Assembly (NCBI GenBank): GCA_051294905.1
Contig: CM119371.1
Span: 26,724,001-26,788,000, forward strand
Direction: 5' to 3'
DNA length: 64,000 nucleotides
From: Botryllus schlosseri
Taxonomy: Eukaryota
The notes beneath the pieces were generated by a model, which did no database searches, was not told the DNA's origin, and saw only the letters and a list, made by a program, of their open reading frames with translations. Made by a program: the position numbers and the translations under genes. Of this stretch, positions 3,070 to 64,000 are shown one piece after another; positions within the stretch are counted from its first letter, which is position 1, and each line of letters starts with the position of its first letter.

Positions 3070-3750
3070 TTCCATTGTCATAATGTCCTACACCTGTGAA
3101 CCAATCTTCAAGTTGCGCATTCAATGTTAAGCTCGGTAATTCCGTTATTAAAGTTGAGTATGCATAGGTACGTGCTACGCCCCCGTAAAAGTCGGCATGG
3201 AACTGGATTAGTTTCAAAGTTGTTCAATCATGAAATGCGTAACAAAATTTGACATGGTGCATTGTCATAATGTCTTACAACGGTGTAGCGAGTTTCAAAG
3301 TTGGGAGTCGATTATTAACATGATAATTCCGTTATTAAAGTTGACTATATGCGTAGGTACGTGCTACGCTACGGAAAAACAGACTTAGCCAAAATTCTGT
3401 ATAGAACTGCGTTGGTTTTAAAGGTGTTACATCATGAAATGTCTGACGAAATTTGGTATGGTGCATTCTTATTATGTCCTACAACTGCGTACCAACGTTC
3501 AAGGTGAGAATTTAATATTTAGCATACTAATTCTGTTATTAAAATTGACTATGTATGGGTATATGCTGTGTTCACGAAAAACAGATATGCGTAAAAGTCG
3601 GTATTCGACTGCGATAGTTTCAAAGGTGTTCCATCATTAGATGTGTGATGAAATCTAGCATGGTGCATTGCCATACTGTCCTACAACTACGTATCAAGTT
3701 TAGAGTTGGGATTCAATGTTAAGCATGGTAATTCCGTTATTAAATTTGGC
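3070..3750 (+). repeat. Degenerate ~200-bp tandem array (mirrored at ~1005-1685)
   Basis: The marker ggtaattccgttattaaagttga and variants recur at 3135, 3322, 3526 and 3727. Confidence 0.85.
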
Positions 3751-5128: not shown

Positions 5129-5680
5129 TGTAATTCCGTCATTAAAGTTGACTACGCATAGGTATGCGCTAAGCTCCCGCAAAACAGTTTCACGCAAATG
5201 TCGGTATAGAACTGCGTTAGCTTTCAAGTTGTTCAATCATGAAATGCGTAACAAAATTTGACATGCTACATTGTCATAATGTCTTACAACTGCGTACCGA
5301 GTTTCAAGGTGGGGAGCCGATTATTAACATGGTAATTCCGTTTTAAAGTTGACTATGTATAGGTACGTGCTGCGCTATGGATAACAGATTTAGCCAAAAG
5401 TCGGTATAGAACTGCGTTGGTTTTAAAGGTGTTACATCATGAAATGTCTGATGAAATTTGGTATGTTGTATTTTCATAATATCCTACAACCGCGTACCGA
5501 GTTTCAGGGTGGGGATTTGATTATTAGCATGGTAATTCCGTTATTGAAGCTTACTATGTATAGGTACGTGCTACGCTAGCGAAACACAGATTTACGCAAA
5601 AGTGTATAGAGAACTGCGTTAGTTTTAAAGGTATTGCATCATGAAATTGCGATCAAATTTGGTATGATGCATTGTTATTA
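5129..5680 (+). repeat. Second block of the same ~200-bp tandem repeat
   Basis: The marker recurs at 5129, 5331 and 5531; units share gaactgcgttggttttaaaggtgttacatcatgaaatg with 3403-3440. Confidence 0.85.
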
Positions 5681-21054: not shown

Positions 21055-21371
21055 GTGAATTCGATCCTTGATACACCTTGTTATGATGCCCAATAGCTCA
21101 TCGTCGATACTGCATCTGGCTAAATTCAAATAATGAAGACTTTGATTCCTTGCTGCAAGCGATCCAACGATATGAGCTTCATCCCGACTCAGTGAGATGT
21201 TGTATGCAGTGATGCCATCAAGGCCTTTCATGAGATCCTCGTCGTCTGATTCATAGATCGCTGTGTAAAGTTCCATGAGAATGAGGCTGTTCACATTCTC
21301 TCTCATGTTCTTCTCGAGTTGAAGGAGAAGCGATCGAGCAATAACTTGATGCTTCTCTGTTCCATCGGAGA
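21055..21371 (-). CDS. NLR gene coding exon 4: post-NACHT helical region and first leucine-rich repeat
   Basis: Acceptor ttgcttcttgcgtcacag|TC (phase 1) and donor CAC|GTGAGT (phase 0). Encodes SLHYLNLARCSIDDELLGII, an RI-like LRR. Its phase matches the NACHT exon donor. Confidence 0.8.
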
Positions 21372-22295: not shown

Positions 22296-22946
22296 ATCTA
22301 TAACCTATCAAGGTTCGTTTGTGAACGTGAACCTCTAAATTTCAGAGGTTCACATATAGAACGCTTCAACAATTCTAATTATAATTCGATACTAGATTTT
22401 GACTGATACCGAACCTTGCACTAACCAGAATATGTTCCTGAATGATGAATAACTAGTAAATGCATGTAGCCCTGTCATTGGTTATTGATTGAGCTTATAA
22501 TCAGTTACTGCTACTATCTACCATTGCACATGATTATGTTTAACAAAATTATAGACTGGAAATCTTTTCGCGTTCCGCGCCACTCCCTTCCAGCTACAAT
22601 TTACTGTCCCTCCGTTCTTTCGCGTATTTGACGTCACGTTAACGTTTTGACCAGCGCGAAACTGTACTGTGATAGTGCAATTCAGCTTGCTACACGAGAA
22701 ATCTGTAGACACTATTCGGTACTTAGCAACGGGCCACCTCGGAGTTCATGATCCCCACAAAACCAAGTGATTCGTCAATCTTGTAAGGAGGTGCATGCGT
22801 AGATGACGCAGTCACGACGTGATTAGACCACGTGATCACGGATTGCGCAAGCGCGGGAATTAACACGACGTTCACATATCGACCATGCGTGGTCGGCTCA
22901 GTGTTGATTTGACTTGGCAAGGGACGGACGTACGGCGTTTAAGAAG

Positions 22947-23769
22947 ATGGATCTCTGTGTTTCATGTAATAATGAAGTTTTAGAGGATGAAGCTGCCTTG
23001 AAATGCGATGGGTGCGGCATGTGGCAGCACATCGCTTGTGGCCCACAAGATATTATGTTTCGAGAAGACTACTTAAGAATTGTTAAGGAAGATTGTAGCG
23101 TGGCCTTCAAATGTACAGAATGTCGACCTGATTTGATTGTGAGTAATTCGAATAAGCCTGCTTTCTGGTTTTTAGGTTTTATTCATCTTAATTTTATAGC
23201 CACCACCTCAATCTCCAATTATGCACGTCGCCGGTGCTCAACTTATTGAATGTGCATGTGAAGGGGCACGTGCCTTGGATGCAACTCGATCAGTGCCATT
23301 TTACAACCACGTAAGTCAAACAATGCTATGCAGTTGGATGTGATCAAGTTTTGGCCATATTTGTAATTTGCAGGAAGACGATATTGTTGAATCAACCGCA
23401 GGGATCACATCCAAAAATTTCAAGCCGCAGAATTGGAGCGTTTACGATACTGCAATCCGCACGAACAATGATGTCGATGGATGGCACACCCGCCTGAACA
23501 TGCGAGGACGGCACAACATGCCAATGTATAACCTCATTCTTCTCTTGAATGAGGAAGCGTCGTTCTCGTACGAACAGGTGGCCCTCCTCTCTGAAGGTAA
23601 GATAAAGAAACGACACCGCTGAGAGTGTCGATTGATTGATTGGCAATTATATAAACTCTGGAATCGATTAAAGAAAGGGTGGAAGACACCCCGTCGCCTA
23701 CTAGAAGAAATTGCTGGTATTAATGCCATTAATTTAATGGGCCTATTTGTGAAGAACAAACCTGATTAG
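22947..23769 (+). pseudogene. Internally deleted MULE (Mutator-like) transposase gene with an N-terminal PHD finger
   Basis: ATG at 22947 gives CVSC..CDGCGMWQHIACG..CTEC (C4HC3 PHD), followed by a gtgagt donor at ~23139. The downstream segment WSVY...RTNNDVDGWHTRLN matches the MULE RTNNxxEGWHxxL motif. In-frame TGA at 23620. Confidence 0.75.
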
Positions 23770-25204: not shown

Positions 25205-28200
25205 TAGGGTTGTTCAGAATTGACCGACTTTCAAAAAGTATAGGTTTTCAGTCCGTTTCCCATGCCTTATACCTTAAAAACAAATTCTGGCAACTTTTTT
25301 TTGTAATTCATCCCCTGCATCCGTGTGCATATTGCCGTTTTTTCATGCACCTAAAAATTTAATCCGAATTAGGGGATTCCCCCATTGTCAGTGACTCGAC
25401 AGGAATGGCCTGTGTTCTCATTGACGTGACGCGTATGTTGTAGCGTTGATGAAGCGCTGAGCACGGCTGTGAAACGGGAATCATTGATTAGTCAGGTGCC
25501 TTGCTGCTTTGTTGTTGATGGACTGTGTTTACGATTGAGGTGCAGGACTTATCAGGCGGCGTTTTGACTCATGTTATTAGCGAGTTTAGCGCGTAATTAG
25601 TGAACATAGTATTATAGCAGTGTACAACTATTTGATATAATAGACCTGATACTCTTTTCCTTTCTACTGGGATAGAAACAAAGCTTGCAAATGTATATTC
25701 CAGTGACTGGGGAAAACCGCCAGTCGGTTGCTCTAATTTTTTGTTATATCCCAAGATATCAATATACTGGTATGAGTTTTTCCAATTTAGGAATAATTAT
25801 CTTTGATAATCTATAACTGGATCTAATCTGGCTACTCCTGTGAAAGTTATGCAGTATGTGTTCGACCTAAAACTCTAAAAGAACTGAAATGTTTTCCACT
25901 ATTCTTTGTTGCTTGACTGAGTTTATGTATATCTGTTTTTCTAGGATTAGCTGTAGTGCGAAATGTCTGAAAAAAAAGAAAATCGTCATCTAGTGCAGCA
26001 GTACCGAAGAAAACTAGAAGAACACGATCGCAGGCACAGCATTTCTTAGTTGGGCCATCTGAGGAAGCCATTACAGGATCGAAGTTGCCCACTCTGAGGC
26101 AAGTTATGCAATATGTGCTACACCTGAGAGAGCATTCATTTTTAAAAAATGAACCAGTCAAGTCACACATCCAGATCGCAGTAGATGAAGTGATCGGTTT
26201 TTGGTTACTTGCTGGCATAAAGACTATCACAAAAGTCAATGCCACTAAAAGATTGGAAACAGTGTGGAAACAATGGCTGTCACTAAAGAAAACTGCAGGC
26301 CAGAAATATGTATCAAAAAAACAAAGCGACTTTGAAGCCAAGCTGAGTAAGCTATGGGATATAGGAGCCCCTGACGCGATAGCGACAATTGAAGCAAGTA
26401 GACTTCTTTCTGACGATAAAAAACGTGAAGACATAGCATTTTATCAGGATCAAAGGGGTCCGAGATTAGCAACGATCGGTGGCAAAGATAAAGTGTTGAA
26501 AGCGAAAATCATGCAACAAAAGAGACGGACCATGAGTGCAAGAGAGTCTGCACCAGCATCAAGTAGCGAAGGTGAATTTACAGAGAGCTCATCTATATCT
26601 TCACAGGTAGCTGAAACTTCTCACAGCACTGATTTTGAACTTGCACAGTCGACATCTGGTCATTCCGCTAAATTTGTGACTCTAAAAGCGCCTGTAAACC
26701 TATTCAGCGACGAAGACCTATGCCAGGTTTTTGATCGCTTGAAAGTCAGTGATAATGCCGCTACCATGATAACTGCAGCACTGATTAAAGCTTGCGATGG
26801 CAACCCTAATGACTTCCATCTTTCAAGATCTGGAACCTATCGATGGCGCATTGCAAATCGTTTGCAAATTTCCGAATCTATCTTTGAAAAAATATCCACC
26901 AATCCACCAGAGCACATTGCATTGCACTGGGATGGAAAGCTCACCAAGAGTCGTCTAGGAGATCAATTCGAGGCCTTGGCAGTGCTCGCATCGTCTGCGT
27001 ATTCCGGCGCATTTAAGAAAGGGAAACTTCTTGGCATTCAAACTCTGGAAAGTGCTACAGGAAAAGCACAGGCTGATGCATCATTTGAACTGCTGGAACT
27101 TTGGAATTTAACAAAATCTGTTAGAGCTCTTGTGTTTGACACAACATCCTCAAACAGTGGTAAAAACAAAGGTGCGGTTCCGTTACTAGAAGAATTGATT
27201 AACAGGAAAGTTTTCTACAATGCCTGTCGCCATCATATTTATGAACTGGTCATTCGAGAGGTTTGGAAGTGTTTGTTTGGATCGACAACCACAGGCCCAG
27301 AAAACACGGATTTTAATACCTTCAAGAAGAAGTGGAAACATATTGATAAATCAAGAAGCTATAAAACGCTGAAGTTTATTGAAGGCAGCTGGTTGGCGAT
27401 GAAAGCTGATGAAGCAAAGCAAGAAATAATTCCACTGATGAAACCCTATGATGGAAAGCAGAAAGAAGTCTTGATAAGAGATGACTACAGAGAATGTGCA
27501 ACAGGCACCTTGGCAATTTTGGATGACAAATATGTTGATCATCGTTTTCGCAAGCCTGGTGCTACTCATAGCGCTAGATGGATGAGTCAAGTCCTGTACT
27601 GTCAAAAAATGTTCATGTGGAGTGAGCAAATGGACTATTCTGAAGAGTTCCTTGAAAAGTTGGAACGAATCAATACATTCATTGCTTTGTTTTATGTTCC
27701 AGCTTGGTTGAAAACTGGTATTGCATGTGACGCACCTTGGAATGATCTCAAGTTCCTTCATGACATGAAAAACTTTTCATTATGCGATCTCACTGTTGCT
27801 GATGTGGCATACAAGAAATTGCGAAAACATCATTGGTATCTAACTGAGGAAATGGTGGTATTTACCATGTTCTCGGCTAATCCAAAGATTCCTGACAAAG
27901 TGAAGGAAGCGATGGCTGCTAAATTGCTGAAAATGCCAATCCCTGAACAATTTCGCAGAGGTATACCTCTCAGTCTGATCTCTGACTCTGTCTCTGAGTC
28001 AATGAGTATGGTCGATTTGATTGGGCCAGAATCGTGGTTTCTATTTGATGCTATACATGTGGGACATGATTGGTTGAGTATTCCAGTTTTGGAATGGCAT
28101 ACTGATCCGGATTTCGTGACTGCTCAAGAATTTGTGAATAGTGTTGAGGTAGTTAATGATGCAGCAGAGCGTATGGTAAAATTGAATACCGACTATGCTG

Positions 28201-28840
28201 CGTTCATAACGGATGACAAAAAACAGCGAGCGAGCCTCCTACAAGCCGTGGAAGATCACCGGAACAGATATGCAGATTTCTCGAAAGCAACCATTTCATC
28301 CACCTGATTTATGTAATATTTTTCCAAGTTGATCTCGTTCTTGCCTTATTTTTTCGTTTCCTGTGACGTTTATTATGTGGCTGTGAGTGGATGTTACATT
28401 TACAGTTGTATTCTTGCACACGGGGATCCAGGAAATTGATGAACAGTGCCGAGTAGGTTTGAGGGGTGTAGGATATGTGATCCAACAAAATGATTATCAG
28501 TTTTAGGTAGGTTTGAGCAGTTCTAAGGCAGTGTGGGACATGGAAATGATATCCTGAACTAGGAATGCCTTATATAGTGGGGTTTTGTAGCAATCCAAAC
28601 CGCAACAGCTGCATAAATCCATTTTATATGTTACTTTAACTGGGCTAGGGAAAATCGTGACACTCAGATTTTAGGGGAATCCCCTATTTTCAGCTGATAT
28701 TCTTCCAGCTCAACATGCACACGGATGCAGGGGACGAATTACAAAAAAAAGTAGCCAGAATATGTTTTTAAGGTATAAGGCATGGGAATCGGACTGAAAA
28801 CCTGGACTTTTTGAAAGTCGGTCAATTCTGAACAACCCTA
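25205..28840 (+). mobile_element. Full-length hAT-superfamily (hATm-like) transposon, 3636 bp
   Basis: TAGGG...CCCTA ends; the first ~35 bp of the TIR are perfect and imperfect TIRs extend ~130 bp; perfect 8-bp TSD ATGTACGT (25197-25204, 28841-28848). Confidence 0.95.
26085..28307 (+). CDS. hAT/hATm-like DDE transposase (740-aa ORF; probable true ATG at 25963 is one base out of frame)
   Basis: Motifs LHWDGK, FDTTSSNSG, ACRHHIYE (CxxH), PGATHSARWM and VVNDAAER; lies between the TIRs. Confidence 0.92.
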   Translation: MPTLRQVMQYVLHLREHSFLKNEPVKSHIQIAVDEVIGFWLLAGIKTITKVNATKRLETVWKQWLSLKKTAGQKYVSKKQSDFEAKLSKLWDIGAPDAIATIEASRLLSDDKKREDIAFYQDQRGPRLATIGGKDKVLKAKIMQQKRRTMSARESAPASSSEGEFTESSSISSQVAETSHSTDFELAQSTSGHSAKFVTLKAPVNLFSDEDLCQVFDRLKVSDNAATMITAALIKACDGNPNDFHLSRSGTYRWRIANRLQISESIFEKISTNPPEHIALHWDGKLTKSRLGDQFEALAVLASSAYSGAFKKGKLLGIQTLESATGKAQADASFELLELWNLTKSVRALVFDTTSSNSGKNKGAVPLLEELINRKVFYNACRHHIYELVIREVWKCLFGSTTTGPENTDFNTFKKKWKHIDKSRSYKTLKFIEGSWLAMKADEAKQEIIPLMKPYDGKQKEVLIRDDYRECATGTLAILDDKYVDHRFRKPGATHSARWMSQVLYCQKMFMWSEQMDYSEEFLEKLERINTFIALFYVPAWLKTGIACDAPWNDLKFLHDMKNFSLCDLTVADVAYKKLRKHHWYLTEEMVVFTMFSANPKIPDKVKEAMAAKLLKMPIPEQFRRGIPLSLISDSVSESMSMVDLIGPESWFLFDAIHVGHDWLSIPVLEWHTDPDFVTAQEFVNSVEVVNDAAERMVKLNTDYAAFITDDKKQRASLLQAVEDHRNRYADFSKATISST

Positions 28841-40301: not shown

Positions 40302-41696
40302 CTTGGTAAAGATCATTTCCTGATTTCTTGAAAACGACGCCTGCCACGAATCTTCGAACGACAGACCATCGTTCTCCATGAAGATATTCTTCGTCAAAGC
40401 GAGTAAATTCGCTGATCTTCATTTCTGCTATGAAGATCGCTGCCAGATATTCTTGAAGGCTTTGATGACAAAAGAAGAATGTGAAATCTCCTTGCATCAA
40501 ATGTCGGCTGAGTAGATTGTTTCCCGGAACTTTTGTCATTAAATCTTGGACTTCCTCCGCGGTCAATTGAAATGTTTCCAAGTCGCTTTCTCTGAATACG
40601 ACTCTTCCTTTTTTCATGCCATGAAATGACAATGCCTTCAGTTTGTTGACGATCGATAAAATTTGTTCCCGATTTCGAATGTTTTCGACGCTTTGAAGAG
40701 CTGATATGATCCTGTTGTATAGCTCTGTTACCGTTGTTGGAGGGGGTTTATCTGGATCCCTTCCCATCACAACTGCCGTTAGAATCAGAAAAACGGGTAC
40801 AGAGATTAGGTTGAGCAATCTTGGTGATATGGTTTCAATCTTCTGCCAGAGCTCCTCACCATTCTCTTTAAGTAAATATGCAAATAGCCTATGCGCGTCT
40901 TCATACGTAAGGCCATTCAGCGTGATAATGGTTTCGGGTCGCGCCATCGCCGGTAACTCTGAAACCTTGAATTCACGTGAAGCTATGTAGACATTAACGT
41001 GACGTAGGATATTCCGGGATAAAATGTTGTACATGATTGTCCCGCCGCTTGCTTTTTCGTGCTTTTTCATTTTGCGTGGATTTTTCTCAAAATCCCACCT
41101 TGCTTGATCAAGTCCGTCGAATATTAGGAGTGCTTCGGATTGATGTTTATCCAGCCATTTAAATGCCTGATCCTCTTCAAATTCATTATCGAAGAGCCCT
41201 CCAAATAAAAATTTCGATGGTTTAATATCGCCCTTCACTTCGACGTCCTTCAATTCAATATAATGTACCATTTTTTTACCGTAAGGGGACAGATCTTCAG
41301 CACGCTCAATTATTGGGGATGTGCCGAGAGCTTGTCGAGCTATTCTGCGTGTAAGTGTGGATTTTCCCGATCCTGCAGATGCCACAATAGCGGTTATACC
41401 AACTGTTTTTGGTGAGTCAATTTCTTTCTTTTGCCATATGGATGCCACTACGTCACCGATTCCTATATTTTCCGCTTTCATTCTTTCCTGCCGCAGAAAT
41501 CCAACTTCCTGTGTCAGCTGATTATTGTCATAACGACCTTTGTAATAATCATCAACGTCAACTTGACGCATCTGTGGGTAAACCTCAAAGTCAGGTTGCT
41601 GAAGCTTTTCATGTCTAAATTCATCAAGGATACCAATGGCCGTCACATCCATAGCATTTTCGTTGCAAATTTGTATGAGTTTTGTGTAGCTTATAT
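40302..41696 (-). CDS. NLR gene coding exon 3: NACHT NTPase with helical and winged-helix domains
   Basis: Walker A ASAGSGKST, Walker B LLIFDGLDQ, sensor-1 IASRE, winged-helix motif FCHQSLQEYLAA. Acceptor tactttcttttcag|AT and donor CAAG|gttaga, both phase 1. Confidence 0.95.
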
Positions 41697-42404
41697 CTGA
41701 AAAGAAAGTAATATTGCAAATCTACTATTACTAGTTACCAGAACCATCCTTTCTTGTATGGCAATTCGACTGCGCATCAACTTTCTAAGGCGACTAGCAA
41801 TGAGGTCCGGCAGGTTTGTAAAGACTCGAGTCATAACTTGAGTTAATTTATGTATCGACTCTACACTCTACTTGTATTCGAGTCATTGCGCAAGAATCGA
41901 CACATGTTACGTGACTTATTCGAGTCACGTATATCAGGCAGTGTTGGGATGACTCGAATCATCTTTTTCGTGTGACTTGACTTGACACGAGTCACTTTGC
42001 AAAAGTGACTTGACTAGACTTGATTCGAAGTTTCAGAAATCCGGATTGACTGGTGCAGCAAAATTTAGGAGTCAATTACAAGTAATCAAGTAATCGACGT
42101 CGACTAAATCGCTTCATCTTGTTCAAATTGTTAACGATACGCTGGTGTGATCTGTGAGAGCAACCAATTACTCAATGATTGTACGTTTTACCGAGCCATC
42201 ATTGTTATATTACAAATACATTGGTTGCAAACGAGTTGATCGGAGCTTACAGCTTACGTTTTAGTGAACTTGTCGTAATATGCTATTAATATGCTTTTAG
42301 GATTTGTAGACAAAATGATTGCATAGATATACTGGTATTTGAGAGCTGCAAAATTCAATGGTCAAACATTTCTTCTTCATATCATAAATGATGATACTAT
42401 ATAG

Positions 42405-42741
42405 CAGTGGTTTCCAACCTTTTTCGACTCATCGCCCCCTTTTCAAGCTCAACGCTGATCATCGCCCCCCAGATTTTGTAAACCGAAAAATCGGTATACA
42501 ATCTGCAATCGTTGTCGAATTTTACACTTTTGCAACCAAATTTCCTTGGGTTGACTTAAAAAAAAGGTCATTTCTCCGAATTGACTCCAATATAGCTGTT
42601 TTAACGCGTCATCGCCCCCCTATCGCCCTCTTCGCTATTTTCGCCCCCTTTGTCCATTTTCGGCCACCTTCGTCATTTTCGCCCCCCTAGGCCGCTAAAT
42701 CGCCCCCTGGGGGGCGATATCGCCCACATTGGGAACCACTG
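42405..42741. mobile_element. Short hAT-type MITE rich in atcgccccc
   Basis: cagtggtttccaa / ttgggaaccactg; TSD CTATATAG / TTATATAG (7 of 8 match). Confidence 0.85.
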
Positions 42742-45700
42742 TTATATAGTGTTGTAGTCCACAACGTCTTGGGAATGGTATATAATATGAGTTGCTTTGT
42801 TTGGAATACCTTCATGTTAAAATTAATAACTTGGTGTAGCCTATAGTACTAAATTCAATGTAGGAAGTTATCTCCATCACATTCTCAGTTGATTTAGTAG
42901 TCACATAAAGCACTACAACAACACCCAATAAGTGCGAATTTGGGATTTGTACATCTGGTTCAAGCCACATGGTATGAGCCCGTACCCGATGACTGTTGAA
43001 ACAAGCTTGATTTGATCAAGAATAGCCTACGCCACGTACAATTATTATATCGTTTATTAGTCGAGTGGTCCTTGGGCGAGATTGAAGCGCGAAATATTTT
43101 CAATAGTAAAGTCTTAACCCGAAATGGCCGACCATGCCTTGACCTCTTACCAGGAACCCTCAATTTCAGAAGACGAACTTGAAGGGGCCCGAAATTATTG
43201 CGGTGAATAAACATCATTTTATTGGATAATTTATGCGACTTTTTTCAACTTTCGATTTGGCGTTGCAAAATTTTTGATTTTTGCGTACCCTTCCCCACGA
43301 AAAGATACGCATGATTCAAAGAAAATAGAAATTAGTATTTCGGCGTCGGCCATTACCACGCCACGATGCGCGAAGACATATCAAGTTTGGGCCAATATGG
43401 GTCTCAGAGAAGTGTGTCAAACAGATCGTCAGCGAGAAAACCTTAGCCGAAAATGATTGCCCTCATGGTGACTGTAAACTTCATTACAAATATGTCTAAT
43501 TGTCCACAGGTGGTTCAATGGTTCGTGCCGATTTATCCTGTCGCGACAATCTGAACCCCACAGATCAAATAACATCATTAAGATACAAATTATTTGACAG
43601 TGAAGATATATATCAATTTTTAATAGTTTGAGTCTTTTAGTTTTGTACGTTTATGTGATGTCAATATCATTTGACAGGAGGTCACAAAATAACAACATTT
43701 AACGAAGTAATTACACCAACAGGCTGGGGAAGCGAGTTCCGTAGTTGGTTAAACACTGTATAGTCAGGACATCGATGGCTGATGGTTCGAGTCTCGGCTC
43801 TGCCATGTTTCTATGTGTCGGAGGTTTATCTGGTCTCTTCATCGCCGATCCCGCTGTAATACAGCGCATTGAAAAGCCCAGACGAAGAGAGAGCCGAACT
43901 CGTGAAAGGAGGCAGCAAATGAGCCGAAAAAAGACTCAAGCTCAAGAAGACATGCCAATATGACATTATGAAATGTACTGTGTGGGCGCAAATAACCACG
44001 ATGTTGCAAGCGCTAATTATATGCGTTAATAAAAACAACAACAACAACACCAACAGGCCCGCTCGAATATATGTAGTTAATAATTACGTTCCCTACAATT
44101 TCCAAGACATCACCTCACTCGACGCAACCGGTAATTTTTATTACGTGGGCTGAGACGATGGGAAATCTACAGCAATATATATATGTAATTCCCAATATTC
44201 TGCTCCGATTCGTGCATGCAGTATAGACATTTTTCACCCCGAACACGACCAGGCCTCATAAACTAAGCTGACCATCGAAAACTCGCGACGAGAGTCTTGG
44301 GGGTGAAGTCCCCCATAAGTTTGGTTTATCACCCTATTGGGGACCAAAGCCAACGTATTTGAGAGTAGGAGCTGACGAAGTGGTCTTACTGCCTCCATCT
44401 TAATCGTTGTTTTTATTACAGTGCCTTAAATATGGAGTGGGGGCGTAGCGCACGGTATTTTTTGAAATTGGACGTTGGGGAATAAAAGGTCAAAAACCAC
44501 TACACTGTAAACGATCATGGTGTGTGTTCTGGAATTCACACCCCAGTGTAGGGTATTTTCTGAGTCATCACAACTTTTTGGGTGCTAAATCTGTCACTTA
44601 CACCTATGCTAGTGATATGAATAAGCCAAATACACCCATACCATAAGAGACACACCCCAAGCATTGGTATTTGGGGTGAATTATCAGTGATGACCAGCAT
44701 GATTCGTTCATCCAGATAGCTTATCTGCGACAAAAAGGAGAATGATTTACATATTTGACAGTGGCCACCTCTGACTAACTGGTAAGAGTATGTAACCCGT
44801 CAAACAAACTACTTATTTTGAAACTACTGTACTTATCTGAGTACTATTAATATATTTATTTTATTTAAAGTAGTTTCGACATGGATTTGACATTGCCAGC
44901 TTCATACACTCGTTCTTGAGTGAAAATTAACATCTACTGCTTGAGTATCATCGTACACTATTACAGCCACATCAGTGTGTAACAGTGCACGGATTAGCTT
45001 GGTCTTCAATGTTTTTATGAATATGATGAGACAAACATAGCCTTGCCAAGGTTAATAAACTGCACTTTTTTTATCAATGCACGAAAATTCTAATACAAGC
45101 ACTCCTTTACTCATGATATGAAATAGGCCTACACACGATCTGTGCATTGCATAATATGGACAAATCTTCTTAATGTTAGATTCAAGGAGAAATTGATATT
45201 AGTGGCAGACTCGTACTTTGTGAATGTGAAATCAAATATTTTGTTGGTGAGTAATATACTATACGAAGGTGAGCTGCAAAATTGTATTTTGACTCGCTTA
45301 TTTTCAAGCACAACGCCAGTCAATGCGACAACATCTGTGCACATATCAGATGCCTTAGCAGTTTAGAATCCAGTCCAAATTGCCAGCTAAACGTTTATGC
45401 CTCATGTTATTTTTTTCAATTTTAGGATGGTTACCATACAAAATCTTGTCAGGGAATTTCAACCAAGTCGACGTCACATCGAACTGCATTACCGTATGCT
45501 GCGCAACAGTCATGGATCGTTATCAAACAGCACATATTCCTAGGTAATCATTAACATCCAGCTAATTTGCTAACTTCTATAACAAAGGCAATTCGAGGTT
45601 TTCTAATCAAGACACACTCAGACCTGTATCTGTGGTCGCTGTGAATCCATTCTGAAAATCAATATTGCCTATAAGCAGAAAATGTTTCGTGTTTTGCATC

Positions 45701-47014
45701 AATATCACGTAGTCAAATTTAAATTGAGTACATGCATCATTTTCTCTGATTTTCTTCAAATTTTAGGATACTGCTTGAAGACCGCATGGTGCAAGGGCAG
45801 GATTATATCACAGAAACCAACCGAGTTTAGGATTATACTGCGAAAACTGAAAGACTTGTTATCAAGCCCGCTGGTATTCCAACTTTGTTAACGACACCGG
45901 ATGTCAACTTTCGTAGTCGGATATGTAAGGTAAATTGAAACTGCTATGTCCATTTCTGGTGAACTCCGGACTAATTTATTTAATGATAGACTTACTATGC
46001 GCATAAAAATCGCGAGTGGTCACTGGTAATGTTAAGGAAGGAAGTGCTCATAGTAGCGCGAAGCGCTAAAAAAATTCAAATTCACCAATGAAATTCGTCA
46101 TTGATATTAGTAGTTTTACATATTACCCTCAAACATTTATCCTTTCTCATCCAGTGTGATCATATTCACTGGTATATAGTTGATGTAGGGGTGTTTTCGA
46201 AAATTTAAAGCAAGTTATAAATTATGATGCATCTTCGGGTGGGCCAATTGGTATTAGTCACTTTGTAGTATGCTGTTCATTCTTGACCTTTCATCAGAAT
46301 TTTTAGTATAGTGAGGAGCAAACGATTCCAAGCTGATATTTGCATGTGAGTCGCATCATTTTCCACTGATGTTCGCATCTGTGTTGTGGGGCTCTGATTG
46401 CAAAGGGTGCTACTATATTAAAATCGAAAATGTAATCGCAGTCAATCGCGCGCAGCGCGAAGAAAATTTCAAGATTAAGATTAAAATTAAGATTAAAATC
46501 TTTCAGGAAATCGGGAGTCAATTCGTAAATTCGAATTGCAAGTCGACGGCCGCCAACACATACTAATTGAATTGCGTGTCTAGGGCCTCAAAATTTCCCT
46601 CTTACGGCGTCAGGTTGGCCACGCCTGGACTGAAGCAAAGGGCACACCTAAATATGTCTTCTTGTCGAGTCGAGCTGTTTGCTTGAGTGTTAGTATAATG
46701 ATATTAAACTAATCAAATTCGTAATGAAGTGGGACCACAATTTCTTTTTGCGTTCAAGTAGCATCGCTCCTTCACACGCCTTTAAAACTCTTCGTTACAA
46801 TTACCATCTAGCTTCTAGGCGATAGCACTAATGCAATGTTGGCCCACCGCTGACATTTAGTCGTACAGTTAAGTATCGGGCGAACGATACTTGAATGAAA
46901 AGCAGGTCTTCTCTTCGAAGTTCAGCCGGACCACACTGTTGGGTGCCATTGCGTATATCAACGCGCTGATACCCATAACACTAATGAAAATATCATGACT
47001 AGCAAGCCTTAAGA

Positions 47015-48068
47015 CAGAGGTCTCAAACTCAAATGTGCTCACGGGCCAATCTTCCAGTTTTGACGACGCCGCGGGCCGCAGCATCAATAGGGGTATTCCA
47101 TGTCTTTCCAAATGAGCCTTATTCGACGGGATGATTGTCCTATTGAAAGTGAGCTGAGCAGATGACTGACATTCAACACACATCATAAAAATGTGATATA
47201 CTCTTGGGATCAATTTAGGCCTGGCATGCCAGAAATCATCTCATTTATAACTATTTCAATGGAAGTGTTATTGTAATTGATATATATTAATTTAAATGTA
47301 TAGACGACATGTAAGCGGACAGATATATAATGTTATCATAAGAGCTACCACGTTATAATTTTTCAGCTACTATGAATATTTTGAATTCAACAGATTGATA
47401 ATAGAGATTGATCTGATATCACAGTATTTGCTATTTAGCAGTGTAGCCCAATCCAGGATTCGGGTAAAGTTCCGATGAGTGGGTTATTAAGCTCATGTTC
47501 AAATACCTTCGAATGTTGGAGCAGAAAAATAACAATATAAACATATTAATGAATGTGTCATAGTTAGAGGAATGACGGAACGCGGAACAACCAATTGTTG
47601 TTAGATGTTGGAGCGTACCACTACGGTTTAGCGATCCAAGATGTAGGTTGCCATAATTACTTGCTTATTTAGCGAATTACCAAGCTGCGACCTTCTGATA
47701 TATTATACTATATATTCCCATGACACGCGAATATAGTTTGTTGAGTGCATGGTTCCAACTAATTCACGGCCTTCCGAGTCCACTCGGGTCATTATCATAT
47801 GGCCATCGAGTCAGCCTAAGCATAATGCTGTAAACGACAATCGTCGAAGGGTCCGGGTTTCTCATCGTGAATTGGAAATGTGGCGAAATAGTGAATCTTT
47901 TACTGCATGGTCGCAGATAGTGACGTTTGTTGAATAGTTTCAGGCCTTCCGAGCAATTTAAGAAGAAATTTTCAATTTTAAACTTGTAAAGACATATCTG
48001 GCTCTTATATATTGTAAAACTAATGAAAATCTAAAATGTCGTCGCGGGCCGCGTGTTTGAGACCTCTG
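47015..48068. mobile_element. hAT-type MITE
   Basis: TIR cagaggtctcaaac / gtttgagacctctg; perfect TSD CCTTAAGA. Confidence 0.92.
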
Positions 48069-48178
48069 CCTTAAGATATTTTATAACACATTTTGCTCGT
48101 CATTGAAATTGTGCCTTGAAGTAGACCATTGTTCTCAATTACAATCAGTATTGAACGAAATTAAAACATTGCACCCAC

Positions 48179-48328
48179 CTTGTCCCAGGAGACTTGATTC
48201 TCCTTCAGCACTTGTAATGTTGCAGACGAACTTGTTTACAGTAATCTGCTGATTTCCGGCCACGACGTTAACATTGCTATTTTCGAACTTTTGTGTGACA
48301 TTTTCACCTTTCGCCAAGGTCGCAGAAC
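48179..48328 (-). CDS. NLR gene coding exon 2 (150 nt, symmetric phase 1-1)
   Basis: Acceptor gtgtcttag|GT and donor CAAG|gtgggt; open in frame with exons 1 and 3; encodes GSATLAKGENVTQKFENSNVNVVAGNQQITVNKFVCNITSAEGESSLLGQ. Confidence 0.75.
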
Positions 48329-48535
48329 CTAAGACACACGTGACTACTGTACAGAGTGCCAGGTTCCATAGATAGTCTTATAATAAACTAATATGGATTC
48401 TTTTATTATCTTCTGTATCTTATTCATGAAACGAGCGAAATGTGCTGTATTCAAATAACTTTACCACTATTCTATAAGTAACTTTTATTTCAAATTTCAA
48501 GTAATGTGCGGTCCAATACAACAAACACTACTAAC

Positions 48536-48611
48536 CGCTTGTTCCAGGTGACACTGATGTAGACATGACATCAGCGACACCAAAATCGTGATCTCGACCC
48601 CCTTCTGCCAT
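48536..48611 (-). CDS. NLR gene first coding exon (MAEGGRDHDFGVADVMSTSVSPGTS)
   Basis: ATG in a strong context (aacatcATGG); donor AGCG|gttagt is phase 1; upstream acceptor attttcag| at 48656. Confidence 0.7.
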
Positions 48612-49361
48612 GATGTTGTTCACGTGGTACGAATGAGATAGCGTCTACGACGATACTGAAAATATATGTAATACTGAAAATATACGTATTAATTGCATTA
48701 TATGATGCATCATTTCTGAGTTCAATCTAGTTTTTATAGTTCTATCCGAGTCTATCAGTTATTGGCACTGAACTATCGTAGATCTGATAGATATAGTCGA
48801 GCAATATGACCCGACAACAGTCACATGTCCACAAATATGTAATATCCTATATTATTTGGAAACGATGTGTTGAGTAACCATGCAATCAGTATGCTTCATG
48901 GGTATCTTCGATTAAAAGTCAATTCACGAATTCTGCTGCCCGCAAAACCTTAATAAATATTAGTACTACGATCTATAGTTCATACTTCGAAATCAGTCAA
49001 TAAGCGATACACTTGGACTAGTCACAGAGTGATATCGTTTAATACATGATTTGTTTGTTGCCCTTGACTTTAGGATACTGCCTAGAAGTGGGCGGGTTGA
49101 ACGCATTACAAATCTCTGTGGCAAATCAAAACTTTGTAGCGGATAATGTGCAGTGATCCGGAATCCGTATTACGCAACACCGAAGGTAAAGTAGGCCTAA
49201 ATATGGTCAGAAAACATCCCAAAGTATGTAAATATACTGCACCAAGCATTATCCGACTGTGCGGGTGGTGCGGTCCAATGTTCCCTTTAATTTTTCAAGA
49301 GTCTGCGCAAACACACCAACTCGCTGCGCGGGCCCTCGGACAACAGTGCGCAACCACTCTA

Positions 49362-51578: not shown

Positions 51579-53682
51579 AAACTCAACAAACTCATTCAAC
51601 ATAGTGATTTCGTGTATGCCATCAACGGTACGTATACGTATACCATTGTTGTAAATGTTGCAGGATATCAGCTGAGCACAAAGGCCTAAATTGTTGAACA
51701 GCGAAAATTCATTGACAGGTCAAGTATCATTTTACAAAAGTACTGTTGCACTCATTGACGCTCAAATATCAAGGAAAAAATCAACTACGGCTTTTCCATT
51801 TTCCATTCCATTTCCTATGCATGATATTTTTTCAAATTGGCCTATGAGTTCTTAAAGCCCACGCTGATTGTTTTTTAGCGTTCGTAATCTAGCATGCATT
51901 AAAATTACGCGGTGAATTTTTGCTATACGGCGATGCAGGTACTTATTTCCCAGCAACTATATCAACTGCGACTTGATTTTATATTCAGATGGTAACTGGT
52001 TTTATATGCATTGGAAATATATATTTCCCATGAGTATAAAATCCTTTCCCTTGGCTAGCTTCGCCTATGATTCAGTCAGCAGCAAGTTACTCCTGATTAT
52101 ACAATGCAGCATACATTGATCTCATAGTCAACGAGATATATGTTGGCGCAAGTCACCGAGCGATATGATTTGTTTGTTTCCGTTGCTTTCGCAACATTGC
52201 GTGGACCTTGGGCGAATTGACATAGTTACATATTTACTATGAGACGACTTCGAACTTTGTAACGTCGAATTCATGGCCATACAGAGTTCGTAACATAAAA
52301 CGGCGAAGTGCAAGCGTCTATTACAGAATGAAATGTTCACGAATTATTTAAATGCTATGCCGAGCAATACCGTTTGTGCTGGCGGGGCGGCTGCCCTCTT
52401 AGAACCCCAAATTATTCAAATTGTAAATCCAAATTACCCGCAGCCTTTGATGTTTCTTCGATATCATTAGGGACGGGAAACAATTACTGAAAATCTAACA
52501 AAATATCATATTGGTGATAAGTTTCTGTATAAATCGTATAGGATCTTCTGCGATATTTCAAATTCTTAGTGTATTCAAACACATTTCTGATTCCAGTAGA
52601 GTTTGTTAACACATTTCAGATAGCGGAATCTGCTCAATGTCAGCGGTAGTGGCAATCTTGCTCAGTATGCCGAGAAGGCAGTGTAATATCCCTACAGTAT
52701 CAAAGTATAAAATCCCAAGATATTGTCTGTAAATTAGTGCAGGCTATTAAACTGGTTTTACCGATACTGGGACATTAAATTATATTCAGTTCCTACCAAA
52801 TAAGATTTTATCTCATGGGTATGGTGTGCCAATACAGCAGAATGGGCTCGTTTCTCACTATACAGGTTACCTGTAGCATTTGCAGGAAACCAGTAATGAG
52901 ATTAGAATTATAGCATCGGAGCAATATGCCAAATATATATGCATACACCAATGACTTAGTTTGCACATGAATGCTTCAGACGTAAAAACGTGCGAGAAGG
53001 CTGGATTTTTTGTGGATAGCAGGATTTCCTACAGTCTTTGAAAATTAATATGCGTGTTCCTATATAAATAAAAGTGTAGCGATACTACTAGCTTCACCAT
53101 CCCCACTACCAGTTCGATCTGACGTATTTAGAATTACAACTATACTAAAATGTCTATATGCATCACCGGCTCTAACTGCGATTAGAACTCTGGACCTAGT
53201 ATAGCCTACCTCCTGGTTGTTAAACTACGTCAAACTGACAATTTATGGTACGGAGCCTGCGCATTGTGCGCAATCATGGATACGTAAGATCGGCACCTTC
53301 TGGACAACAAATATTCGTTTTAGGTATTCCGAAACCAATATATAATTTGCTAATCATTAGTGAAATATTGTGCCGAACTACTTTCTTGGAAGTTGACAAT
53401 TGTACGGTTTCTTACTGAAATGACTCCGATAACTGATTGGCCGTGACCTATCTTCTGAGTACCAACAATCGTTTTCGCTGCTATATATTGCTAAGTTGTA
53501 AAGGCGCAACAAGACACACGCTCTGCAATAATTCTTTTAACGCAATCCGTAACATCGTAATATAATAGTCTAATAGTTCATCGGCCGCCTTTTCTATCGC
53601 TAGCGGATCGTTATTTATTTACAATTAGCAAACATTCCGTACTCCTATAAACCAGAGGAGAGCGACCGAGCATTGATCTCGT

Positions 53683-54186
53683 ATGGACTGCGATATGATA
53701 CATAATGTTGACCTCAACTATCCGAGGCTTTACGATTTCGCTTCATTTCAGTTCTTTTTGCAAAACCTCATCAACGAGTCGACCATTCTAAGTTTTAAGT
53801 CCTATATTTATGTAGTGTACGAATATAAGTGCCACTGTGATTGTGGCTACGTGGGAAGAACGTCAAAACGTCTGCAGGAACGCATAAACCAACATGTCCC
53901 CAGATTTATCAGAACACGTGCTTCACACTCAGTGAAAAGCTCACCCTTAACTCATCCGCTTAAGATTGATGCTGACCGATCAAATGCCATTAATTCTGCC
54001 ATCAGCAAACATCTGTTAGATAATCCGATTTGTCCGAATAATTATCGAGACGACCGATTTCGAATCGTTGGGCGGGGCCGTTCAGAATTCCATTTGTGTG
54101 CCTTGGAGTCGACTTTTATCAAAATACACCAACCAAAACTCTGTCAACAAAATAAGTTCGTGTACCACCTAAAAATAGTACATTGA
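53683..54186 (+). mobile_element. 5'-truncated Penelope-like retroelement: GIY-YIG endonuclease C-terminus
   Basis: VVYEYKCHCDCGYVGRTSKRLQERINQH ... SAISKHL ... LESTFIKIHQPKLC; no upstream reverse transcriptase is visible, and similarity starts at ~53790. Confidence 0.85.
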
Positions 54187-62121: not shown

Positions 62122-64000
62122 TCACCATTCATTTACTTTCCCTGCCATAGTCGCCCGAATATTCTCCATACGAACTGAGCGATCTTTTGGATCTGTCTCC
62201 TTCATAATGCCGACTTCATGCATCCGACACACAGACACGGACGATTCTCCGGCATTCGACGTTTCGATAACGGCTACGTTACGATCCAAATCGTCCAATG
62301 CGAGAGCGCACACTTGTTGTTTTACAGAGATAAAACCCAACTGTTCGTAAATCGACGAGTCGGAAGTGCGGAATAAAATACATCAAACCTGACCGCTCTT
62401 CGGTGGCAATCTTCGTGGGCTCGTGGAGTACATAACACTCAGGCTACGATTGATAAGCAATTGGCATTGATCGAGAGCAGGTACCAACTGAATCAATTTA
62501 AAATCTCTTGTATCCCAAACTTCAGTGTTTATGATCACTTCCAAACGGTTCGGTGGAATACACCGCTGACGGCTTGGTTGAACTCATCAAATCTATGCAC
62601 AGGTAACGTCTGGTGCTTTCGGACATCCTAGAAACACCCGTCGCTTAGGACTAACCGGTCGTCATACGAAAACGTGGCGCGATGTTTTGGTAGAAACACG
62701 ACTGGTTGTCTTCTATATAGGTATCAGCACTCACGTCATTTCCGTAGGTGTTGATAGCCGTGCCAGTGTTGCGGTCGTAGATAATTGCTTGCATTAAAAT
62801 ACTCGTGGCGACTATTTTGTCTTGCACGGTCGTGTAAAATTCGACATAATCAATACTGTCAAAAGTTACCTTTATGTCGAACGTATTGTCCATATAGCTA
62901 AAAGAACACAGTTGTGGGAGTACCAGTTGGATGATCGGGTCAGCATCACGTCTCCGGCGTACGAGGGTTCGATGCTAAATAACGGCCGAATCAAAAACTC
63001 CTGTCTTGATGCGATCTTTGAAGTTTGACGCTTTGGAGAAGTGAAAATTTCCAGCACTGTCTCCGAGAATGAGCTCGCAATCGTCATCGTGACTGAACGC
63101 AACAGACGTGAAGCGCTAATTTTGATCCCTGGTAGGCCGGGTCTCTCCAGCAGGTCTGAATCGGCAGTAAATCATTCTCAATTCGTGCCTCATACCGCCC
63201 CATTCAGGATAAACCCCTTGTCGATAACAGTGTCGTTTTTGGATGTTGATCGATGCTTCAATTTTGTTCGTAGGCTTGGAGCAACGGCGGCGGATGAATA
63301 GAGAAAACGGCGGCAAAGGTACTACCGGATTTCGACTTTGAGTGTTTGTGATTGCTGCATTTCTCTATGAAAGAATTGAGAGTAACACACCGAGCGATAT
63401 CATGTTCTGCAATAAACCTTTTGCTAGGTTCGAATTTTTTCACATATTGATCCGTGAATAAAAAGTTATGATCTGCATCTGGAAAAGCCTCAACGATAAG
63501 TGTCCTGCGAGGATCCGACAAAACAGACAAATATAAATAATCGGCAGAAAGTCATCATCATACCCTGCGCCGCAAGTCTTTGAGGCAACATTACTTGTCA
63601 TCACATTCTTCCATTTAGCGTCGAGAATTGCTCTTCTTGTTACGATTCCTTTCAAGAGTAACTTCACATTGTTGCCAAACTTGACGTCTAGCTGTTTGTT
63701 GTCTTTGCGGATGGGCTTCCGGATAGATTCATGTATTTTGCTGGTCAACACGTGAAGCTTTGGTGAGATCTCACGCACTGGATGGTATTCCGCAAGTCCT
63801 ACGAGCGCTTTACAAGTAAAGTAACGGGTTTCGTCTGCCGTACGTGCCGGCTTCGTGACACCTAACAAAGATAGCAGGGTGTTCAAACCATCTGCCTGCC
63901 GAATGAGTTTCTTTAACTTCACGTTTCTTCTTGTTACACCATGGTGCAGCGTGCACTTTAAAAGGTTCACGTCTGGATGCATAATAGTGTTGATAACAAG
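62122..64000 (-). pseudogene. DCAF1: Intronless, frameshifted DCAF1/VprBP-like pseudogene (armadillo-like end through WD40), 5' part outside the window
   Basis: Successive blocks match DCAF1 as I recall it: GLNTLLSLL..TKP...ADETR..TCKALVGL; PPFSLF...[40 protein letters not shown]...SVCRMHEVG. They are spread over several frames, with a TAG at 62628-62630. Confidence 0.85.

Follow-up and report, generated by a model that had tools for sequence, protein, structure and literature searches.

The gene studied here raises the question of how an animal NLR might signal when its N-terminus shows no death fold. It lies on the minus strand of a 64,000-nucleotide stretch of the Botryllus schlosseri genome (C1:26724001-26788000, hereafter the window), and the first-pass annotation had described it as lacking a death fold and carrying a RHIM/cRHIM-like candidate amyloid motif on its own symmetric exon. 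We examined the exon structure of the locus and the distribution of the motif exon across the 496-Mb genome. The gene belongs to a large NLR family of ascidian type, with a 25-residue motif at its putative signalling end.

All splicing of the locus and its paralogues was deduced from the DNA by means of phases, splice sites and paralogue comparison. The start exon (exon A, 48536..48655, minus strand) has a TTTTCAG acceptor at 48655 and contains a short 5' UTR, an in-frame stop that precedes the ATG at 48611, a 25-residue leader of acidic residues, serine and proline, and a phase-1 donor at 48536. The leader, called low-complexity in the first-pass annotation, is encoded by an exon that is conserved as well: 28 of 30 paralogue loci have a match to it, and most of these agree in UTR stops, ATG and donor. 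The ATG is missing in about 5 of these 28 matched start exons, and part of the family has therefore decayed. The motif exon (exon B, 48179..48328, minus strand) is 150 nt long, is bounded by AG...GT in phase 1-1 and encodes a 25-residue core (about 48323-48246) followed by a variable tail. The peptide quoted in the first-pass annotation is real, but its bounds have to be moved, as the conserved core starts earlier, at A-T-L-A, and ends in G-D/N-Q. An intron of 6.5 kb (41697..48178) separates this exon from the open, phase 1-1 NACHT exon (40302..41696, minus strand), and by the predicted splicing 76 residues stand ahead of the NACHT exon, in agreement with the earlier figure of about 75.

The NACHT exon encodes a pre-NACHT segment of mixed helix and strand, a nucleotide-binding domain with Walker A and B motifs, HD1, a winged helix and the start of HD2. 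It matched Pfam NACHT with an E of 2e-15, while NOD2_WH remained below the cut-off. Foldseek placed its AF2 model (pLDDT 71) with NOD2 and NLRP3 NACHT structures (E 4e-14 to 1e-13), and its closest named relatives are NACHT proteins of Clavelina (E 7e-34) and Styela (E 6e-29). The gene thus carries a NOD2/NLRP-type NACHT module. The sole coding exon found 3' of it within the window (21055..21371, minus strand) encodes helical domain 2 and the first leucine-rich repeat; it was recovered by tblastn and blastn in 4 of 4 paralogue downstream regions, and its one repeat matched LRR_6 with an E of 0.034, below the Pfam cut-off. One paralogue has a second small LRR-like exon that is without counterpart in the window, and no further LRR exons of the NLR were found on the minus strand of window positions 1-21054. 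The gene may have a very short sensor end, or one encoded in small exons that were missed.

Other features were observed in the window as well. A 778-aa open frame (25971-28307, plus strand) lies inside the 19-kb intron 3' of the NACHT exon; it has no Pfam match and gives the impression of a transposon gene. PHD-finger-like (22908-23249, plus) and GIY-YIG-like (53677-54186, plus) frames, both below the Pfam cut-off, are probably retroelement remnants. Three exon-like pieces with good splice sites (45428-45543, 45770-45930 and 49076-49186, plus) surround the motif exons on the opposite strand, and two of the three are interrupted by stops in every frame. At the window end, two open frames (62651-62974 and 63440-64000, minus; 107 and 186 aa) gave no Pfam match, and three arrays of a tandem unit of about 204 bp, with about 2.8 copies each, were found at 1007-1571, 3184-3748 and 5130-5675.

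The lack of a death fold, as first reported, was borne out by several observations. The motif ORF has no Pfam match at E<=1, the first 100 residues of the NACHT-exon model are mixed helix and strand, and a search of the 6.5-kb intron for phase 1-1 exons of at least 60 nt gave no candidate under strict splice rules. Among seven paralogue loci fetched for their short spacing, four join the motif exon to the NACHT exon across introns of only about 90, 160, 430 and 630 nt. We therefore give very little credence to the idea that the motif exon lies outside the NLR transcript or that extra exons add a death fold. The length of the intron and the joining of exons read from DNA alone leave it some room; against it stand the empty intron, the short-intron paralogues, the conserved start exon with its upstream stop and the phase statistics of the motif copies.

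These statistics come from the genome-wide comparison. The peptide of exon B gave 146 genome matches, and the best 30 of them were without exception open AG...GT exons of a length divisible by 3. Three extra queries raised the list to 163 motif sites, which is a lower bound; weak matches proved genuine on fetching, as 20 of 20 such loci re-scored strongly and the next set did likewise. In 82 distinct copies the strict acceptor phase was 1 in 75, 2 in two and 0 in none, and the strict donor phase was 1 in 69, with three copies in each of the other phases; the symmetric phase 1-1 exon described at first is thus a consistent property of the family. At least 163 sites are divided among 129 upstream of NACHT exons, six with kinases, three with TPR-like exons, three in short NACHT-less genes and 22 without an assigned host. 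A NACHT exon follows within 30 kb in 118 of the 163 listed sites and within 55 kb in 11 more, and, counted from the other side, 105 of 189 distinct NACHT loci have the motif within 30 kb. The NACHT exons that host it range from 84% down to 19% identity to that of the window, so that the motif spans NACHT clades only 19-30% identical to it, and some (loci L080 and L090) are preceded by tandem double motif exons. Conservation among paralogues, a check proposed with the original annotation, accordingly extends to at least 129 NACHT-linked sites.

Outside this genome the motif was traced with a profile. Protein databases yielded one real protein among longer sequences, and cluster databases yielded 34 representatives, made up of 13 short predictions with a single matching stretch and 21 repeat proteins with several; the latter 21 were dropped as low-complexity. 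Nine motif peptides were examined and are Logan/ENA gene predictions with 52-90% identity to the nearest copy in this genome; annotated proteins of named tunicates are not among the nine. Outside this genome the motif was recovered only in such predictions, and its presence there shows that it is not an assembly artefact. The profile gave no score on the N-termini of the Clavelina, Styela and other NACHT relatives (P0001-P0065). Segments rich in Asn, Val, Ile and Gln were observed at the ends of some of these ascidian-type NACHT proteins, Clavelina and Styela among them (residues 1-40 of P0001 and P0002, last 30 residues of P0003), and are possibly further motif families. No description of the motif in tunicates was found in the text of the literature searched, which included few subscription journals.

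The 82 copies share the consensus A-T-L-A-E-G-E-N-V-x-Q/L-x-F-x-N-S-x-V-N-V-V-A-G-D/N-Q, with L3 (77 of 82), A4 (78), F/I13 (81), V20 (70) and G23 (72) as the firmest positions. The most conserved stretch is the acidic N-terminal A-T-L-A-E-G-E, which is unlike RHIM. Positions 23-24 read G[DN] in 70 of the 82 cores; ten copies have Arg or Glu instead of G23, and proline occurs in 11 cores, always at position 17 in the presumed arc. As Asn replaces the closing Asp in 21 of 82, a caspase-type cleavage after this Asp is unlikely. The core is under purifying selection, in the kinase copies too. By pooled pairwise Nei-Gojobori estimates, in which the pairs are not independent, its dN/dS was 0.20 over all 82 copies, 0.30 in 31 NLR copies and 0.29 in the six kinase copies, and in 20 exons of equal length it was 0.25 for the core vs 0.79 for the tail.

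The layout reads as strand, arc, strand and turn, but it fared weakly in two formal tests. Hydrophobic alternation over columns 9-20 was no better than in shuffles (p 0.62), and a self-similarity of period 17, in which G-E-N-V is echoed in G-D-Q-I, was of marginal significance (p 0.036) and noticed post hoc. When the motif exon was modelled as a single chain by AF2 from an 84-row alignment (pLDDT 71, pTM 0.31), no secondary structure was assigned, two structure searches with this model found no fold match, and the best ESM Atlas score of the motif exon, 0.80, is a lead at most.

The RHIM label given to the motif at first has to be withdrawn. The core [IV]Q[IVL]G occurs in none of the 82 copies, and the Pfam RHIM model, whose use had been proposed as a check, matched 0 of 26 members at E<=10, where HMMER filters drop most matches above 0.1. 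A cRHIM has a large hydrophobic residue before the glycine, [VI]x[FIVL]G, and this form was found in 2 of 82 copies; the loose form [VI]xxG is present in 63 of 82, the window copy included, and to this extent the cRHIM-like label stands, VxxG being too short to be diagnostic. The available text of PMC13506858 gives VxxG as the shorthand for the core of the Imd/PGRP type of cRHIM, and the RHIM signature is written as G-phi-Q-phi-G in that of 10.1101/2020.01.06.895854 and as (I/V)Q(I/V/L)G in that of PMC4262963. Judged by its sequence, the motif is not a RHIM and forms a separate sequence family. It is highly improbable in our estimate that it is a true RHIM or cRHIM that has diverged, shares ancestry with the RHIM-NACHT proteins of amphioxus and could cross-seed with RHIM. 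The 63 copies with VxxG and the G[DN] ending would fit such descent, as would a position equal to that of the RHIM in Branchiostoma BF82280 as outlined in PMC4262963, whereas all 82 copies lack G-phi-Q-phi-G, 26 members searched against Pfam RHIM, HET-s and PP gave no match, and a profile search of solved structures returned no RHIM chain at E<=10.

The search for effectors that share the motif was more productive, and located the same exon ahead of six IRE1-like kinase exons, which are candidate effectors. These six, among 71 kinase exons, have the motif 1.0-5.0 kb upstream on the same strand; random uniform placement would give about 0.06, an underestimate owing to clustering. Kinase genes of this group lie at C5:3175232, C3:20181650, C3:20090065 and C3:57824. 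The kinase exons that were read have phase-1 acceptors, matching the donor phase of the motif exon. The kinase domains are single-exon, their nearest solved structures are IRE1 kinases (E 4e-28), and HRD(L/I)K is kept in five of the six motif-linked ones. In a tree of 20 kinases, where a kinase is labelled 'no motif' if up to 9 kb of DNA upstream showed none, the six are scattered, five label changes are forced, and a single clade is rejected (p-AU 8e-51). Between NLR and kinase copies of the motif, synonymous distance is saturated (pS 0.84) and pN is 0.28, and dN/dS is 0.22 among three close kinase copies (0.29 among all six, as above). Saturation together with constraint in the kinase copies indicates that NLRs and kinases have shared the motif for a long time and that the sharing has been maintained. 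The window's own motif is the fourth most similar match to the C5 kinase motif outside the kinase clade (E 8e-4).

The kinase genes were followed in both directions. No RNase (KEN) domain was found after the kinases in 20 of 161 downstream ORFs, which were those scanned, and 149 ORFs of at least 58 aa in front of the motif exons of kinase and TPR genes gave no credible Pfam match; no first exon could be assigned to these genes. Full-length relatives of a motif-linked kinase were absent at E<=1e-25. The motif also precedes 3 of 20 TPR-like exons. None of 70 caspase-domain matches lies within 30 kb of a motif site, and a genome scan with Pfam MLKL_N and Gasdermin was silent, as were its controls, so that it says nothing on the absence of these domains.

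Several observations concern these host families in their own right. The genome has at least 71 single-exon IRE1-like kinase domains, with clusters at C3:16.1-17.6 Mb and 20-21.7 Mb. A TPR-like exon lies within 10 kb 3' of three kinases, an adjacency from which we infer that kinase, TPR and motif exons were shuffled as phase 1-1 modules. The motif-kinase cassette on C5 (C5:3.17-3.18 Mb; L046:4400-8300 and L100:6197-6835) sits among PARP14-like exons, with KH_PARP14 below cut-off downstream and an ORF upstream that is RRM-like by eye and has no Pfam match. Upstream of a kinase without the main motif (C3:38.09 Mb, L060:2805-2900), a small exon-like ORF rich in Gly, Val and Asn is a candidate second motif. 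Twelve caspase-domain matches that are almost alike (a common span, scores of 48-51 bits and a 257-aa open frame) are spread over nine contigs in the manner of a mobile element, for example at C9:5666698, C1:36392876, C4:18143713, C13:24710226 and C16:4868672.

Three sites on C8 (L092, L093 and L098), and likewise the neighbouring L047 (all within C8:3.86-4.02 Mb), have the motif and no NACHT in the fetched DNA. The NLR start exon is retained in L092, L098 and L047, and the C8 motif loci end in a short stop-terminated exon ahead of out-of-frame NHL repeats. A motif-NHL fusion was considered and rejected, as in L092 a stop closes the exon that comes after the motif and the NHL repeats are in a shifted frame; L093 and L098 have the same stop. 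These NACHT-less loci may encode short decoy proteins or may be pseudogenes.

As to what the motif does, the patterns of sharing and constraint lead us to an evenly weighted proposal that it is a new family of homotypic signalling motifs, probably of amyloid type, that couples many NLRs to few kinases. Oligomerisation of NACHT upon ligand binding is established for NLRs, and IRE1 kinase domains activate by proximity. In the proposed mechanism, ligand-driven NACHT oligomerisation would gather several N-terminal motifs, which could stack as beta-arches composed of a strand V-x-Q-x-F, an arc x-N-S-x, a strand V-N-V-V and a closing G-D/N turn. The stacked NLR motifs would template the same motif on the IRE1-like kinases, which would be switched on by proximity, and the TPR-like and short motif-only proteins may be further sensors, adaptors or decoys. 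The proposal draws on the occurrence of one phase-matched exon under selection ahead of NACHT, kinase and TPR-like exons, and on a feature of the amyloid-motif class, namely a short N-terminal NLR motif in place of a folded effector domain. Against it count Arg or Glu at G23, the acidic N-terminal stretch, the lack of alternation beyond shuffles, the position of the motif before the kinase where fungi and bacteria have it at the effector C-terminus, the absence of a nearby listed motif at 65 of 71 kinases and at all 70 caspase matches, and the paralogues without an ATG. More tentatively, and somewhat short of even, we suggest that most NLRs of a chordate lineage (over 100 genes in several NACHT clades) may use one lineage-specific amyloid motif, not death folds, to seed IRE1-like kinases, with TPR-like and motif-only proteins as sensors or decoys.

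Two other functions have to be weighed against this coupling by amyloid. The motif could be a non-amyloid docking peptide, either a short linear motif to which a single folded adaptor binds or a part of a small discrete beta complex, through which NLRs, kinases and TPR-like proteins plug into one pathway. Such docking accounts just as well for sharing and for purifying selection, the near-invariant A1, L3, A4 and G6 resemble a specific binding face, and the tolerated change of Gly to Arg and the proline in the arc are easier to accept under it. Twenty-five conserved residues are nevertheless long for a linear motif, and the composition is dominated by Val, Asn, Ala, Gly and Gln, with proline excluded from both presumed strands; on balance docking appears less likely, though it deserves serious consideration. 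Lower still we rank a role within the motif's own protein or its handling, such as NACHT autoinhibition, localisation or turnover, with the kinase and TPR copies as by-products of exon shuffling. This would suit the NLR linkage of 129 of 141 assigned sites, the presence of the motif at only 6 of 71 kinases and the C8 copies, which resemble recent NLR 5' ends stranded before out-of-frame NHL repeats. It is unlikely in view of the kinase copies, which are constrained (dN/dS 0.22-0.29), separated from the NLR copies by a saturated synonymous distance and present in several kinase subclades, where a NACHT-specific contact would not persist.

NLR-coupled amyloid signalling has been demonstrated in fungi and bacteria, and has only been predicted for a few amphioxus proteins. 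In the present genome over half of the NACHT loci listed, and a set of kinases besides, have the motif in front, which names both the missing signalling end of these NLRs and a candidate effector. If the amyloid reading is true, a chordate would possess a network of amyloid signalosomes in the fungal style, in which both the motif and the effector class are new; should the motif prove non-amyloid, it still represents an unclassified module of immune interaction. NLR amyloid signalling is placed in fungi, bacteria and archaea in the available accounts (PMC7889193, PMC12881547, PMC12261475).

The nearest animal comparison is amphioxus, where, in the account available from Kajava et al. 2014 (PMC4262963), Branchiostoma floridae BF82280 is a RHIM-NACHT-repeat protein, RHIM occurs in several immune architectures, tunicates appear to be without RHIMs, and the glycine equivalent to the closing one here is critical in RHIM and HET-s. 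As far as that account goes, in both systems a NACHT protein of an animal carries a short, presumably amyloid motif in the death-fold position and the motif recurs in several architectures, whereas the motif of Botryllus has no RHIM core, heads over 100 NLR genes and stands ahead of IRE1-like and not RIP kinases. From the available descriptions of fungal HRAM/HET-s-NWD2 (PMC4518210) and of the Basidiomycota NLR motifs (PMC9815663), the likeness is in about 25 residues at the NLR N-terminus, spaced hydrophobics, a G[DN] end and many NLR but few effector copies. Closing G[DN] is named there as a feature of HRAM-like motifs, and basidiomycetes have dozens of NLR-side copies vs few on the effector side (PMC9815663). 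The motif is out of the HRAM register, which has Gly at 19 and hydrophobics at 5, 8, 10, 16 and 18 as given in PMC4518210: counted back from G23, hydrophobic residues stand at -14 (V9) and -3 (V20), whereas most copies have Ala at -1, and -9 and -11 are variable or polar. Unlike the fungal motif, which in these descriptions is C-terminal on HeLo-type pore formers, that of Botryllus stands in front of kinases and TPR-like domains, and its genes are unpaired.

One short motif common to receptor and effector is, in the available text of 10.1101/2020.01.06.895854, the defining criterion of fungal and bacterial amyloid signalling motifs. The bacterial BASS motifs of that work are alike by description, not by sequence, in being common to NLR and effector (here a candidate one) and occasionally double, and they differ in effector class and gene arrangement. 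With the RIPK1/RIPK3 RHIM necrosome and the insect Imd/PGRP cRHIM, as presented in the available part of PMC13506858, the motif shares VxxG and, as proposed here, the coupling of sensors to kinases by a short motif; unlike them it has no (I/V)Q(I/V)G core, its kinase is IRE1-like and lies 3' of the motif, and its sensors are NLRs.
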